Virus genome (UHGV): UHGV-0291501
Reading direction: 5' to 3' (one strand)
Source of the DNA: a virus
DNA length: 64,000 bases
Shown here: one piece after another, positions 34,823 to 38,669 of the stretch
Numbering within the stretch: position 1 is the first letter of the stretch
Layout of the letters: each line of letters begins with the position of its first letter
Translations under genes and position numbers: made by a program
Notes under the pieces: generated by a model
Seen by the model: the letters and a program-made list of their open reading frames with translations, nothing else
What the model was told of the DNA's origin: nothing
Database searches by the model: none

Positions 34823-35923
34823 ATGACAATTCTATACAAACAAAATAAAGATGGCTCTTTTAACGTCTGGTCATGTGTCGCTGTAGGTGACAAAGTTATT
34901 ACAACCTATGGTAAAGAAAATGGCAAGATGATGTTTGAAGAGTATACAGCAGAACCTAAAAACATCGGTAAAAAGAATGAGCGTAACGCTGAACAGCAAG
35001 CTCTCTTTGAAGTTGCTGCTAAGTATAAAAAGCAAGTTGACCGTAAAGGTTATGCTTACACAAAAGAGTCTGCACAGAATACTGAGAAGGTAGGTGTACA
35101 GCTTGCTCATGATGCTGCAAAGGTTAGTCATGCAAAGTATCTGAAGTTCCCTGCTGATGCTCAACCAAAACTTGATGGTGTTCGTTGTAGAATTTCAAGA
35201 GATGCTGATTCAGTTAGCTTCACGGCTTATTCTCGTGAGAATACTGTTTACAACGTCCCAGTAGAACTAATCCCAGATTTGCTTTTGTTGCTTAAATTGC
35301 ATCCACAAGTAGAAGACTTTGATGGTGAGATTTATGCTCATGGTTGGGACTTAGAAGATATTGTGTCTATGATTAAGAATGCTGACAATCCAGACCGACA
35401 TCTACTCCAGTTCTACTGGTACGATATCTGTGACAGCACTAAGACGTGGCCTGAGCGTAGAGATATTATTGAGACTTCACCTATTGTTGAGCTTGGGGAT
35501 ACCTGTAGAGTGGTTCCTGTACAGACTATCCGTGTAAATTCTTGGGAAGAGTTTGATGAAGCCCATGATAAGTGGGTTGAAGCTAAGTTTGAAGGTGCAA
35601 TGTACCGTTCAATCTCTGAAGACTCCTTCTATGAGTGTGGTCACCGTTCATACTTCTTGATTAAGCACAAGAAGATGCACACTGAAGAGTTTAAAGTAAC
35701 TGGTGTAAAGACTGATAAACGTGGTCATGGTAAGTTCGTCGTAGAGACTCTTCCTAACGTCTTTGTAGATGTCTCATGGAAGACTACTCATGAGAAGAAA
35801 CAGTATCTTGCTGAACATCCTGAAGAGTTTATCGGGAAACCTTTAACTGTTCAGTTCCAGAAGATGACTCGTAAGGGTTCTTTACAGTTCCCTGTTGGGT
35901 TAGTTATTCGAGATTACGAATAA
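34823..35923 (+). CDS. ATP-dependent DNA ligase
   Basis: Adenylation motif I KLDGVRC; size like T7-type ligases. Confidence 0.8.
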   Translation: MTILYKQNKDGSFNVWSCVAVGDKVITTYGKENGKMMFEEYTAEPKNIGKKNERNAEQQALFEVAAKYKKQVDRKGYAYTKESAQNTEKVGVQLAHDAAKVSHAKYLKFPADAQPKLDGVRCRISRDADSVSFTAYSRENTVYNVPVELIPDLLLLLKLHPQVEDFDGEIYAHGWDLEDIVSMIKNADNPDRHLLQFYWYDICDSTKTWPERRDIIETSPIVELGDTCRVVPVQTIRVNSWEEFDEAHDKWVEAKFEGAMYRSISEDSFYECGHRSYFLIKHKKMHTEEFKVTGVKTDKRGHGKFVVETLPNVFVDVSWKTTHEKKQYLAEHPEEFIGKPLTVQFQKMTRKGSLQFPVGLVIRDYE

Positions 35924-35930
35924 AAAGTTG

Positions 35931-35958
35931 TTGACATAGAAAATTTGGTGAGTATACT
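35931..35958 (+). promoter_or_regulatory. Near-consensus sigma70-type promoter TTGACA-N16-TATACT
   Basis: Read directly just after the ligase stop; would transcribe into the G/T-rich non-coding region. Confidence 0.45.
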
Positions 35959-36035
35959 GAGCAGCATAAACCAACGGGTACTCACCAGCATCACTTAAGA
36001 GTCTTCTAAGAGGGTTTTTAAGTAATGTGATGTTT

Positions 36036-36119
36036 GGTTTGGTGTGGTCAGGTAATGTGATGTCTGGTTTAGTGCGGTGATGTGCGGTCCGGTAAGGTCC
36101 GGTGCGGTAAAGTGCGGGT
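36036..36119 (+). repeat. Phased pentamer tract 1A: about 17 tandem (G/N)GTNN units
   Basis: ggttt ggtgt ggtca ggtaa tgtga tgtct ggttt agtgc ggtga tgtgc ggtcc ggtaa ggtcc ggtgc ggtaa agtgc gggta; strict 5-bp phase. Confidence 0.7.
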
Positions 36120-36177
36120 AGTTAGTCTCAGCTACATTAAAATGAGACTTACCTTTTTAAAAGGTCTTTAAGAGGGT
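36116..36177 (+). repeat. 62-bp hairpin module, copy 1 (identical to 37527-37588)
   Basis: gggtagttagtctcagctacattaaaatgagacttacctttttaaaaggtctttaagagggt; 7-bp stem agtctca/tgagact; 15-bp palindrome acctttttaaaaggt. Confidence 0.75.
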
Positions 36178-36186
36178 TTTTTAATG

Positions 36187-36270
36187 AGGTAGGGTAAAGT
36201 AATGTTTGGTCTGGTTTGGTAAGGCGCGGTCTGGTTTGGTAAGGTAAGGTTCGGTATGGTATGGGTGGAT
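36187..36270 (+). repeat. Phased pentamer tract 1B: about 17 GGTNN units
   Basis: ggtag ggtaa agtaa tgttt ggtct ggttt ggtaa ggcgc ggtct ggttt ggtaa ggtaa ggttc ggtat ggtat gggtg. Confidence 0.7.
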
Positions 36271-36297
36271 GGTAGTAGCCACGTTAAAAATCTACCA
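36270..36297 (+). other. Stem-loop (6-bp stem, 16-nt A-rich loop) conserved with a compensatory change in region 2
   Basis: tggtag-tagccacgttaaaaat-ctacca here versus tggcag-tagccttataaaaaat-ctgcca at 37671-37698. Confidence 0.5.
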
Positions 36298-36354
36298 AGT
36301 TTCTAAAGAGTCTTCTGTTGAGGGTTCTTTACAAACAACTTAACAATCAACTAA

Positions 36355-36960
<606 letters not shown>

Positions 36961-36962
36961 TT

Positions 36963-37403
36963 ATGAATACAAAAGCATTAGCAGCAAAGTTTAGTTACGG
37001 TGACACTGTATCACATTCTGAGATGGACACCTTCTTAGGTATTGTGAAGCCAACTTATCAAGGTGACATTGTTAAGTACGAAGATGAAATGAAGGCTTAT
37101 GCGCTTACACGTCTAAACCGACTTGAGAAGTTTATTGAGAAGCTTCTTAAAGAAGAGAAGATTTATCTGGTTGCTTCAATGGGTGTTGGTTATCGTGTGG
37201 TTGAACCTAAGCATCAAGCAACTATTGCAAAACGTAAAATGTCTGGTAAAATTGGTCGTGCTTTAAAGCAAGCTACTCAAGCAATTGAGAATGTGAACAC
37301 TATGGCACTTAGCCACCAAGAACGTTCACGACTAATTGAACAGCAAAACCATTTAGCTGCTATGAAAGCTAACATTAACAAGCAACGTAGAAAACCTTTC
37401 TAA
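36963..37403 (+). CDS. Hypothetical protein (cassette gene 2), helical, basic C-terminus
   Basis: 146 aa; tightly coupled to the upstream gene; followed by a terminator. Confidence 0.5.
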   Translation: MNTKALAAKFSYGDTVSHSEMDTFLGIVKPTYQGDIVKYEDEMKAYALTRLNRLEKFIEKLLKEEKIYLVASMGVGYRVVEPKHQATIAKRKMSGKIGRALKQATQAIENVNTMALSHQERSRLIEQQNHLAAMKANINKQRRKPF

Positions 37404-37414
37404 GTTGACTAGGT

Positions 37415-37437
37415 AGCCTCTTCGGAGGCTCCTTTTT
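37415..37437 (+). terminator. Rho-independent terminator
   Basis: Hairpin agcctc-ttcg-gaggct followed by CCUUUUU. Confidence 0.55.
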
Positions 37438-37462
37438 AAAAGGTCTTTAAGAGGGTCTTTTA

Positions 37463-37530
37463 ATGAGGTAGTATACGGTATGGTGGGGTAGGGTGAGGTC
37501 TGGTTTGGTAAGGTAGGGTCTGGTATGGGT
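37463..37530 (+). repeat. Phased pentamer tract 2A: about 13 GGTNN units
   Basis: ggtag tatac ggtat ggtgg ggtag ggtga ggtct ggttt ggtaa ggtag ggtct ggtat gggta. Confidence 0.7.
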
Positions 37531-37588
37531 AGTTAGTCTCAGCTACATTAAAATGAGACTTACCTTTTTAAAAGGTCTTTAAGAGGGT
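37527..37588 (+). repeat. 62-bp hairpin module, copy 2 (identical to 36116-36177)
   Basis: Same 62-bp string as copy 1, compared by eye base for base. Confidence 0.75.
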
Positions 37589-37596
37589 CTTTTAAC

Positions 37597-37665
37597 AAGG
37601 TTAGGTTAGGTCTGGTGTGGTAGGGTTAGGTGGGGTTAGGTTTGGTATAGTTTGGAAGGATGGCA
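37597..37665 (+). repeat. Phased pentamer tract 2B with telomere-like TTAGG/TTAGGG units
   Basis: ggtta ggtta ggtct ggtgt ggtag ggtta ggtgg ggtta ggttt ggtat. Confidence 0.7.
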
Positions 37666-37670
37666 GTAGC

Positions 37671-37698
37671 CTTATAAAAAATCTGCCAAATAAGCTAT
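37671..37698 (+). other. Stem-loop paralogous to 36270-36297
   Basis: tggcag-tagccttataaaaaat-ctgcca; T:A to C:G compensatory pair relative to region 1. Confidence 0.5.
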
Positions 37699-37706
37699 AA
37701 AATCTG

Positions 37707-37735
37707 TTGACAAGTCAGGTGTTATAGCTTATTTT
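37707..37735 (+). promoter_or_regulatory. Weak sigma70-like promoter candidate (TTGACA-N17-TATTTT)
   Basis: Perfect -35 but poor -10; a better -10 (tatact, about 37736) is 23 bp away, so function is uncertain. Confidence 0.25.
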
Positions 37736-37779
37736 TATACTCAATGTAATACAAAATTTAATATAACTTTGAGGTCATT

Positions 37780-38163
37780 ATGAAAAAGATTTTATTAGCT
37801 GCTGCAATGGTTATGGCAATGAATTTACCAGTCAATGCAACAGAACTTCCAAATGTGGACTTATCAGGTGTTCCAGAAGACACTTGCCAGATTGTTAAAG
37901 GTGTTGCCCTATCTAAAGGTGAACTACTTAAACCAATCTCTGAAGAGTCTTTAACAGAGATGACTGATAAGGTAACTGACTATCAGTATCGTGTTCTTGC
38001 AGAGTATTTCCTGCAATCTGCAAATATTAAAGAGAAGCACCCTGATGATATTGATGTACAGGCTATGCTCAATCATCGTATCCAGTTTAAAGAAGATTTG
38101 ATGCAAAAAGCTATGTATGGTGTTGAGTATTTCTTAGAAAACAGAAGCTGCACAGGTATTTGA
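37780..38163 (+). CDS. Secreted/periplasmic small protein, hypothetical
   Basis: N-terminal signal peptide MKKILLAAAMVMAMNLPVNA. Confidence 0.5.
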   Translation: MKKILLAAAMVMAMNLPVNATELPNVDLSGVPEDTCQIVKGVALSKGELLKPISEESLTEMTDKVTDYQYRVLAEYFLQSANIKEKHPDDIDVQAMLNHRIQFKEDLMQKAMYGVEYFLENRSCTGI

Positions 38164-38164
38164 T

Positions 38165-38377
38165 ATGGCTCTTAAAAAGTTACATCCCAGAAGCGGTTAT
38201 GGTAAGATAATTGACGATACAGACGGCTTTACAGTCTTTACAGTCATCTGTCAGGATGATTCACAGATTGAAAAGGCTCTTGACGATTATCTTAATGATG
38301 AACGTGAAAAGGTCAGAGCTACAAACATAGACTCATTAATTGATACTTCACGTAAACGGAAGAAGAAAGATGAATGA
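38165..38377 (+). CDS. Hypothetical protein
   Basis: 70-aa ORF; no motif. Confidence 0.45.
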   Translation: MALKKLHPRSGYGKIIDDTDGFTVFTVICQDDSQIEKALDDYLNDEREKVRATNIDSLIDTSRKRKKKDE

Positions 38378-38669
38378 GGTTTTTGACCCTTATGCTCCAC
38401 AAGATGATTGGGAGGCTGATAGAGAGGCTGAAATGGAGAGTTATATTTGTCCAATGGATGTAGACGAAATGAGAGACTTCGTTGCACATCGTTTTAAGAG
38501 AGAGATTAAATCCAGAGGTCTTTCTCAAGAGCAAGTTGCTAAAATTTGTGGTATCTCTCAGGCTCGTGTATCCAACATAATCCACCTCACTGGGAATGTT
38601 TCCCTTGAGTATATGTTGGAAGTGTGTGAAAAATTTGGTGTTAATTTTAATTTAAGGTTGGCAGACTAA
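38370..38669 (+). CDS. Small acidic protein with C-terminal XRE-type helix-turn-helix
   Basis: Start at ATG 38370 (MNEVF); HTH-like LSQEQVAKICGISQARVSNIIH; track start at 38340 is TTG. Confidence 0.5.
   Translation: MNEVFDPYAPQDDWEADREAEMESYICPMDVDEMRDFVAHRFKREIKSRGLSQEQVAKICGISQARVSNIIHLTGNVSLEYMLEVCEKFGVNFNLRLAD

Follow-up and report, generated by a model that had tools for sequence, protein, structure and literature searches.

Two intergenic pentamer arrays of virus genome UHGV-0291501 read as the guide RNA arrays of a type II VIPR locus

What is the role of two regions free of open reading frames (ORFs) that repeat the same ordered parts on either side of two phage genes? The question is raised by virus genome UHGV-0291501, of which we analysed a stretch of 64,000 nucleotides (nt), called the window here. 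The initial annotation took the second region, 37404-37779, for a paralogous copy of the first, 35924-36372. We find that the two are not free-standing regulatory regions but, in all likelihood, the arrays of a single type II locus of VIPR (Viral Interference Programmable Repeat), 35924-36372 being the upstream array (vrRNA1 and vrRNA2) and 37404-37779 the downstream array (vrRNA3 and vrRNA4), with the genes vipr and vap between them. The locus is orthologous to the published system of Escherichia phage SUSP1 and therefore already known as of the 2026 preprints; our finding adds one more VIPR instance, with four new guides. Unless stated otherwise, all features lie on the plus strand.

Reading 35500-38400 directly, we found that each region consists of two tandem units of box, tract and 3' tail. 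The box is a 28-nt element (TTAAAAGGTCTTTAAGAGGGTCTTTTAA, with CTTAAGAGTCTTCTAAGAGGGTTTTTAAG as its leader variant), the tract is made of strictly in-phase 5-mers with GGT or GGC at positions 1-3 and free positions 4-5, and the tail is a structured element of ~35 nt that comes in two types: A, which is GGGTAGTTAGTCTCAGCTACATTAAAATGAGACTTACC followed by TTTTT, and B, which is GG(AAGG/GTGG)ATGG(C/T)AGTAGCC...AAAAATCT(G/A)CC. In 35924-36372 a strong promoter is followed by unit 1 (A tail) and unit 2 (B tail), and in 37404-37779 the terminator of vap is followed by unit 3 (A tail), unit 4 (B tail) and a strong hairpin with a U-run. The ordered parts described earlier for the second region thus do recur there, each in its place, including the stem-loop at 37654-37687 and the promoter-like TTGACA at 37707, with corrected unit numbers: the first tract has 12 units rather than 13, the supposed thirteenth being the GGGTA that begins the tail, and the second has 11 rather than 10. 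The 62-bp module noted in both regions is indeed identical (36116-36177 = 37527-37588), but it is not a single part, as it spans the A tail and T-run of one unit and most of the box of the next. When the two regions are aligned, the likeness exceeds this module, since it extends to the box, to the 5-nt register of GGT and to the second tail. A search for (GGTNN)x5 with at most two mismatches gave 43 matches in the window, all inside the four tracts, against 0.04 expected from shuffles, which places the periodic pattern far from chance; the box occurs three times against 0.00 expected. Where units are degenerate, it is mostly G1 alone that is lost (TGT/AGT).

The identity of the element was reached through an IMG/VR scan for seven perfect GGTNN units, which gave at least 120 stretches among the matches listed. 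Among these, many unrelated phage contigs carry several intergenic, sense-oriented tracts with variable NN, indicating a widespread element. VIPR was reported in a June 2026 bioRxiv preprint (10.64898/2026.04.26.720920), with SUSP1, a member of the Ounavirinae, as the model. According to that preprint, the system combines Vipr, which is small and RAMP-like, with an accessory protein called Vap and with vrRNAs of ~100 nt. The vrRNAs contain 9-16 YNNGG repeats, in which GGY is conserved and NN hypervariable, and end in an invariable 3' tail, a pseudoknot in the SUSP1 clade. In SUSP1, RNAs of ~100 nt are transcribed from the arrays and co-purify with Vipr, and their reprogramming has been shown (10.64898/2026.04.26.720920); a companion preprint (10.64898/2026.04.26.720927) presents cryo-EM structures in which the pseudoknot is seen directly in the SUSP1 complex. 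The same sources describe one Vipr protomer per 5-nt repeat in a right-handed helical filament, with G1, G2 and Y3 flipped into protein pockets and N4N5 offered for pairing. Double-stranded target DNA is read as NNx, the third base being extruded and usually falling on the codon wobble position, and the hybrid of vrRNA and DNA winds around the non-target strand. At its 3' end the RNA is capped by the pseudoknot; from there the R-loop complex grows on the DNA towards the 5' end, and binding, for which no protospacer adjacent motif (PAM) is needed, represses transcription of competing satellites and phages.

The four units of the window agree with this description. vrRNA1 (36021..36158) has 16-19 DGYNN units (36021/36036-36115), an A-type pseudoknot tail (36116-36153) and a T-run, and vrRNA2 (36188..36296) has 15 units (36188-36262) and a B-type pseudoknot tail (36263-36296; GTGG:CCAC, GGTAG:CTACC). 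Downstream of vap, vrRNA3 (37467..37569) combines 12 units (37467-37526) with an A-type pseudoknot tail (37527-37564; GTAG:CTAC, AGTCTCA:TGAGACT) and a T-run, and vrRNA4 (37599..37687) combines 11 units (37599-37653) with a B-type pseudoknot tail (37654-37687; AAGG:CCTT, GGCAG:CTGCC). Their dinucleotides are AG AC AT GG AG GA CT TT AA AG CT AT for vrRNA3, decoded as the NNx sequence AGnACnATnGGnAGnGAnCTnTTnAAnAGnCT, and TA TA CT GT AG TA GG TA TT AT TT for vrRNA4, decoded as TAnTAnCTnGTnAGnTAnGGnTAnTT. VIPR vrRNA genes are recognised by at least four, typically 9-16, YNNGG repeats in flanking intergenic DNA, and the four tracts have 11-19. When the SUSP1 locus is parsed with the same unit definition, one unit is found upstream and three downstream, matching the 1 + 3 vrRNAs reported there from small RNA sequencing (sRNA-seq; 10.64898/2026.04.26.720920), and thus a unit corresponds to a vrRNA.

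Comparison with relatives shows what is kept and what varies. Across 96 units from 27 related loci, with 64 different tracts and 18 distinct tails, the order of parts is conserved while the pentamers diverge, as had been proposed from the two copies in the window. The pseudoknot changes in a compensatory way in both stems, S1 occurring as GTAG:CTAC, GTGG:CCAC or AAGG:CCTT and S2 as AGTCTCA:TGAGACT, AATCGGA:TCCGATT, GGTAG:CTACC or GGCAG:CTGCC, and in the common tail types neither stem has an unpaired position, in line with the invariable pseudoknot-forming 3' tail of the SUSP1 clade. ViennaRNA recovers stem 2 only, because pseudoknots lie outside its predictions. The earlier proposal of selection on architecture therefore captured the conserved order and the GGY scaffold; what it missed is that the target code is written in the diverged dinucleotides, which makes them the part that carries information. 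Similarly, the telomere-like units exist as GGTTA/GGGTTA, and a telomeric meaning does not follow, as they are a coincidence of GGT with TA. The number of units differs between isolates, from one to five per locus.

The two genes between the arrays carry the orthology. vipr (36373..36960) encodes a 195-aa RAMP-fold protein which, by orthology to SUSP1 Vipr, would form a filament on GGYNN repeats. It is identical at 191/195 positions to PDB entry 36pp, 'SUSP1 Vipr protein' (E 6e-128), and 97.9% identical to ALH47069 of phiSUSP1 (tblastn), placing it well within the SUSP1 clade as defined by more than 90% identity to SUSP1 Vipr. The RAMP fold (RRM core, G-loop, thumb) and the GGY-binding residues are present, and so are all of H17, K33, E71, M72, R138, D177, W178 and R179, which the companion preprint gives as RNA- or DNA-contact residues (10.64898/2026.04.26.720927). 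In the program-made ORF list vipr begins at GTG 36358 and has 200 aa; its true start is ATG 36373, which follows a GGAG and is also used in every annotated homologue and in the PDB chain. Only 2 nt past the vipr stop begins vap (36963..37403), which encodes a vap1-type accessory protein of 146 aa, identical at 145/146 positions to the product of the SUSP1 gene adjoining vipr, so that the two form the minimal operon of vipr with an adjacent vap1. Vap itself has no Pfam or PDB match; vap1 is reported to strengthen defence (10.64898/2026.04.26.720920).

From orthology and sequence, we expect the four units to work as SUSP1 vrRNAs do. The array has a promoter on its 5' side and terminator-like structures on its 3' side. 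The promoter, of the sigma-70 type (TTGACA-16-TATACT, 35931..35958), matches 11/12 consensus positions, is the best in 33-41 kb and is kept in SUSP1, Felix O1 and Bas63; it is predicted to drive the upstream vrRNA array together with vipr-vap. Termination or delimitation of the RNAs would fall to the A-type tail, its T-run included, and to the last hairpin, and the box hairpin would mark the 5' boundary of each tract, where it probably signals processing.

The window is that of a Felix O1-like phage (Felixounavirus). For the 2.1-kb stretch there are matches in 257 phage records of the Felix O1 group (Ounavirinae: Felixounavirus, Suspvirus and Mooglevirus), the best of them Escherichia virus TH10 (99%). 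In the deposited records the regions are annotated only by automatic 'repeat_region', 'terminator' and 'promoter' features and by one unsupported note; this note, 'possible binding site of StbAB' in the GenBank entry of KhF3, concerns just 11 nt of the region and was set aside for want of support. A Vipr at least 90% identical is encoded in 118 phage records, with the cassette between two arrays, and in ~100 Felixounavirus records, Felix O1 and Bas63 among them, the ligase, one or two units and the ORF87 homologue follow each other within a few hundred bases, without vipr-vap. Tails and boxes that are homologous across the cassette offer plausible sites for the deletion of vipr-vap, and recombination between them would also change the number of guides. 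Guides are shuffled between phages in the 27 parsed loci: that of vrRNA1 is also found in phage ASO1B, that of vrRNA2 in KhF3, AYO145A and one IMG/VR contig, and that of vrRNA3, unchanged, in KhF3 and wV8, while the vrRNA4 guide was not seen in the 26 other parsed loci. vrRNA1 contains an internal 30-nt duplication (1.9 copies, 36022-36078; Tandem Repeats Finder, TRF) and an orphan vrRNA of Bas63 contains five perfect copies of GGTTAGGTAT (L007, 2703-2752), both products of recent slippage, so guide length shifts through repeat expansion. As a side observation, the deposits GU169904.1 (Staphylococcus phage SA1) and MG065664/MG065668 (Campylobacter phages A132 and A126) have Felixounavirus sequence inside, the SA1 vipr being 99.5% identical, and look like contaminated or chimeric deposits.

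What do the guides of the window target? We scanned IMG/VR, GTDB genomes and metagenomes with exact IUPAC patterns; the E. coli and Salmonella pangenomes lay outside this pattern search. A guide of the SUSP1 clade should, under the 1-nt skip rule, match natural targets in competing mobile elements at 80% or more of NN and have no target in its own genome. Within the 64-kb window the four guides have no self-targets (best match at most 73% of NN), as reported for VIPR (10.64898/2026.04.26.720920). With 10-unit exact patterns, vrRNA1, vrRNA3 and vrRNA4 gave 0 hits in IMG/VR, and vrRNA3 and vrRNA4 gave 0 hits in GTDB genomes. Seeds of eight vrRNA3 units hit 14 loci, the best of which (L167, 20/22) is out of frame in a tape-measure ORF and consistent with chance. 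In metagenomes vrRNA3 had two hits, about the chance expectation; one of these, L179, matches at 22/22 in an unrelated bacterium, within a gene for an ABC-transporter binding protein, and was rejected because the skipped bases are first codon bases and chance alone would give as many hits.

For vrRNA2 the outcome was different. Its units 5-14, all with perfect GGY and lying 5' of the conserved final GGTAT, match at 20/20 (23/28 overall) in the 5' part of a tail-fibre gene, in frame and wobble-aligned. The sites are in Hafnia phage yong1 (L180, 40862-40891) and in a provirus (L177, 11983-12011) 97.7% identical to yong1. None of 300 unit-order shuffles attains the score, and we estimate ~0.03-0.1 chance hits over four 10-unit IMG/VR scans. 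The yong1-type tail-fibre gene is thus a reasonable candidate, from pattern matching, for the vrRNA2 target, and would place it in a temperate phage of another enterobacterial genus. Its 5' end has no match in 5,426 E. coli genomes (blastn/megablast). In the same genomes, blastn searches for the published E. coli satellite found no match to the vrRNA module or to 4 kb of head genes. Two further observations concern guides outside the window. The fourth SUSP1 vrRNA (L128, unit at 2892) matches the yong1 cI repressor gene (L180, 11482-11508) at 16/18, in frame and wobble-aligned; with a permutation p of ~0.007 before correction for 62 guides, cI as its target is suggestive only. Guide L135-B has a cluster of hits on B-tail DNA (16-17/18), in G/T-rich sequence.

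Several points weigh against our identification of the downstream array, or of its guides as working ones. Its source papers are preprints, and we infer the expression, processing and Vipr loading of vrRNA3 and vrRNA4 from sequence. One unit of vrRNA3 (TATAC) is without the G2 of GGY, vrRNA4 is rich in GGTTA repeats and could be a slippage product, and the exact-pattern scans gave neither of them a credible natural target. The box upstream of vrRNA3 (37436..37463), a 12-bp hairpin of -6.3 kcal/mol, has a modest predicted stability with a weak z of -1.45, and the accessible text of the VIPR preprint makes no mention of a box hairpin.

Could the repeats serve another purpose? They might be mobile regulatory cassettes (terminator, promoter, stem-loops) that move a two-gene moron by recombination, the tracts being functionless. 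The 62-bp identical module and the boxes do offer recombination substrates, and the contrast between the 118 records with a cassette between arrays and the ~100 without vipr-vap is what such movement would produce. It leaves unexplained, however, the strict 5-nt phase over 10-20 units, the difference between GGY and free NN and the compensatory pseudoknot changes, as well as the sRNA-seq, Vipr co-purification and reprogramming published for a 98%-identical system. We therefore regard cassettes with functionless tracts as very improbable, and recombination as probably a side-effect rather than the function. Slightly more remote still is the idea that the tracts are cis leader elements bound by a ring- or filament-forming protein similar to TRAP, or that the box is a boxA-like antitermination site. 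The 5-nt period equals TRAP spacing, tract ends overlap bases of terminator-like hairpins, all tracts are in sense orientation upstream of genes, and the core of the box, TCTTTAA, resembles boxA (GCTCTTTAACAA). That resemblance fails in the leader variant (TCTTCTAA), and TRAP-type leaders have (G/U)AG triplets spaced by 2-3 nt, whereas the conserved triplet here is GGY. Rfam 15 recognises no known leader family, with 0 matches at the gathering threshold in the whole window (vrRNAs are not yet in Rfam 15), and the cognate protein has been identified and solved as a guide-presenting filament that binds DNA in trans. TRAP-like attenuation and a boxA/NusB-type antitermination box were accordingly dropped once the VIPR identity was established, as were a G-quadruplex or R-loop replication origin, Chi-like or primase-site arrays and telomere mimicry. 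Nor is the locus a CRISPR-Cas system: in place of identical 24-40 nt repeats with unique spacers, the repeat finder and TRF show 5-nt tracts and unit-level repeats only, and a Pfam search of the neighbouring proteins found no Cas family. A tRNA scan of the window found none, and a search for literature on Felixounavirus repeats returned nothing relevant.

If the regions are VIPR arrays, one or both of the downstream guides may still be idle, that is, decayed, slippage-derived or decoy guides kept by linkage. We think this unlikely, though far less so than the two explanations above. It would account for the lack of targets in the collections scanned, for the defective unit of vrRNA3 and for a vrRNA4 that is unique among 27 loci and consists largely of GGTTA repeats; in the preprint, too, targets were found for only 20/41 SUSP1-clade guides (10.64898/2026.04.26.720920). 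On the other hand, our scans required exact matches and covered collections outside the E. coli and Salmonella pangenomes, where the published targets lie, the natural targets of the SUSP1 clade being mostly a satellite in E. coli genomes. Moreover, vrRNA3 is unchanged in three phages (that of the window, KhF3 and wV8), and both tails and both boxes are intact.

A further observation concerns the guides of phages without vipr. By the NNx rule we compared all parsed guides with all collected DNA and then sampled eight more vipr-less phages (SUT_S720, BPS17L1, IME338, JH2, ESCO49, EC6, ph2-2 and EC106, whose locus was not parsed). A tblastn search of the complete Felix O1 genome found neither vipr nor vap, and Felix O1, SUT_S720, BPS17L1, IME338, JH2, ESCO49 and EC6 (loci L004 and L170-L176) each have one orphan vrRNA, with a promoter in front of it and a pseudoknot as its cap. 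Three sites in vipr are matched. Site A covers codons 1-10 (36372..36401, minus strand) and is matched by the orphan guides of JH2 and ESCO49 at 17/18 and 19/20 NN, with the skip base at wobble; 5000 random 10-unit guides never exceeded 18/20 in the window. Site B covers codons 13-21 (36411..36434, minus strand) and is matched by the EC6 guide at 16/16 in 12/24 vipr alleles, those with A18, and at 13/16 only in the allele of the window, whose N18 breaks the match. Site C covers codons 157-166 (36841..36870, plus strand) and is matched by the orphan guide of Felix O1, SUT_S720, BPS17L1 and IME338 at 20/20 NN, in frame and with wobble skip; the Felix O1 guide scores 21/22, and 2000 random 11-unit guides reach at most 19/22.

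The guides at site C vary in an informative manner. The SUT_S720 orphan has the same code as that of Felix O1 despite differing GGY bases, and the variants in BPS17L1 and IME338 (CT to TT, AA to AG) fit other vipr alleles (CTG/TTG, AAA/AGA). Of 18 variable first or second codon positions in vipr, four lie inside the ten codons of site C. Guide variants that track vipr alleles, together with substitutions clustered in the target sites, suggest an ongoing arms race. The ph2-2 orphan guide matches vipr only weakly (18/22, not wobble-aligned), two Bas63 orphan guides do not match vipr-vap, and several orphan units have weakened GGY motifs. No guide of a vipr-positive locus matches vipr, so the orphan guides are not autoregulatory. 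We propose that vipr-less phages keep orphan guides as an RNA 'anti-VIPR' that turns the Vipr of a co-infecting rival on its own gene, a proposal drawn from guide-target matches to which we give equal chances of being right and wrong. In a mixed infection, orphan vrRNAs would load onto the rival's Vipr and direct it at vipr. The presence of orphan vrRNAs aimed at vipr in vipr-less Felixounaviruses appears to be new; guides without the protein are not described in the accessible text of the preprint, where the search was anchored on the Vipr protein. If they work, they would be the first counter-measure to VIPR, and guide RNAs would persist and be selected without their effector gene.

Besides the vrRNAs, the locus has the conserved box hairpin, which precedes every vrRNA tract. 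Its 7-bp outer stem covaries (TTAAAAG:CTTTTAA vs CTTAAGA:TTTTAAG) and its loop is GTCTT(Y)TAAGAGGGT. The leader variant at 35994..36022 (CTTAAGA, loop GTCTTCTAAGAGGGT, TTTTAAG) has a stem that covaries with the TTAAAAG/CTTTTAA variant; the copy 5' of vrRNA2 (36157..36184) has one mismatch to the consensus, and those 5' of vrRNA3 and of vrRNA4 (37568..37595) match it exactly. Since mature vrRNAs have ~100 nt, the box is probably outside the mature RNA and may be a 5' processing or boundary signal. A third box-like hairpin (36303..36332; TAAAGA, GTCTTCTGTTGAGGGT, TCTTTA), found as direct repeat D6 and with its stem read from the sequence, sits between vrRNA2 and the ribosome-binding site of vipr. 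Downstream of vap there is an intrinsic terminator-like hairpin with a T-run (37410..37437; -13.6 kcal/mol, z -3.5), whose stem-loop AGCCTCTTCGGAGGCT (37415-37430) is followed by CCTTTTT. The strong hairpin with a U-run that closes the array (37688..37742; inverted repeat I1, -17.8 kcal/mol, z -4.7) is kept in vipr-less phages too, and its loop holds the -35 element TTGACA (37707) of the promoter of the next gene, 37780..38163. Three genes 3' of the array, 38340-38669 encodes a helix-turn-helix (HTH) protein of the Cro/CI type (Pfam HTH_3, E 6e-10). Its counterparts in relatives are labelled transcriptional regulators, and no connection with the VIPR locus was apparent.

Long arrays of GGTNN tracts were also seen in IMG/VR loci L010, L127, L107, L117, L126, L114, L017, L111 and others, with up to eight tracts in one 190-kb contig. 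Their linkers are short and fixed (AAGGCTAATG or ATGGCA, for example) or consist of a conserved hairpin. These are probably the other VIPR array architectures named in the preprint.

We believe that the identification of this locus is useful beyond the single genome. VIPR is a recently described way of recognising DNA under RNA guidance and has been proposed as an ancestor of the CRISPR RAMPs; its non-contiguous guide code uses two bases in five to read two target bases in three. Two 'hypothetical proteins' and two unannotated intergenic regions thereby become an inter-phage weapon with readable target codes, and more than 100 Felix O1-like phage genomes in the databases carry such a locus, several of these phages being candidates for therapy or biocontrol.

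The closest known system is the type II VIPR of SUSP1, with which the window shares the position between DNA ligase and the ORF87 homologue, Vipr (98% identical), Vap (99% identical), the promoter, the box, the GGYNN tracts and the A and B pseudoknot tails. It differs in having 2 + 2 instead of 1 + 3 vrRNAs, in sharing 0/4 of the NN codes and in four amino acids of Vipr, one of which, N18 in the window and A18 in SUSP1, lies inside an orphan-guide site. The filaments of class 1 CRISPR systems (Cas7/Csm3/Cmr4) have a 6-nt period with one base flipped, whereas VIPR has a period of 5 nt with three flipped, a non-contiguous guide (NN per repeat) and a 1-nt skip in the target; VIPR also has no repeat-spacer array, no cas1/cas2 and no PAM, and is phage-encoded. 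TRAP, with its 11 (G/U)AG repeats, is like VIPR in that an oligomer recognises a fixed triplet once in every 5 nt, the spacer bases being free, but the triplet and the fold differ and TRAP acts on an attenuator in cis, not on DNA in trans; it was an early lead that was not supported. The PeSL cassettes of T4-type phages, which Arbiol, Comeau and Krisch reportedly described in 2010, are promoter/stem-loop repeats that flank variable genes and give rise, by recombination, to presence/absence polymorphism. The loss of vipr-vap in ~100 Felixounaviruses looks alike, with the difference that the repeats of the window are themselves functional RNA genes. Finally, orphan CRISPR mini-arrays and RNA anti-CRISPRs occur in phages as single repeat units through which the Cas proteins of a rival are exploited. 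The orphan vrRNAs resemble these in having no cognate protein gene in cis and in carrying codes against the effector gene of a rival; the RNA chemistry and the protein family differ.

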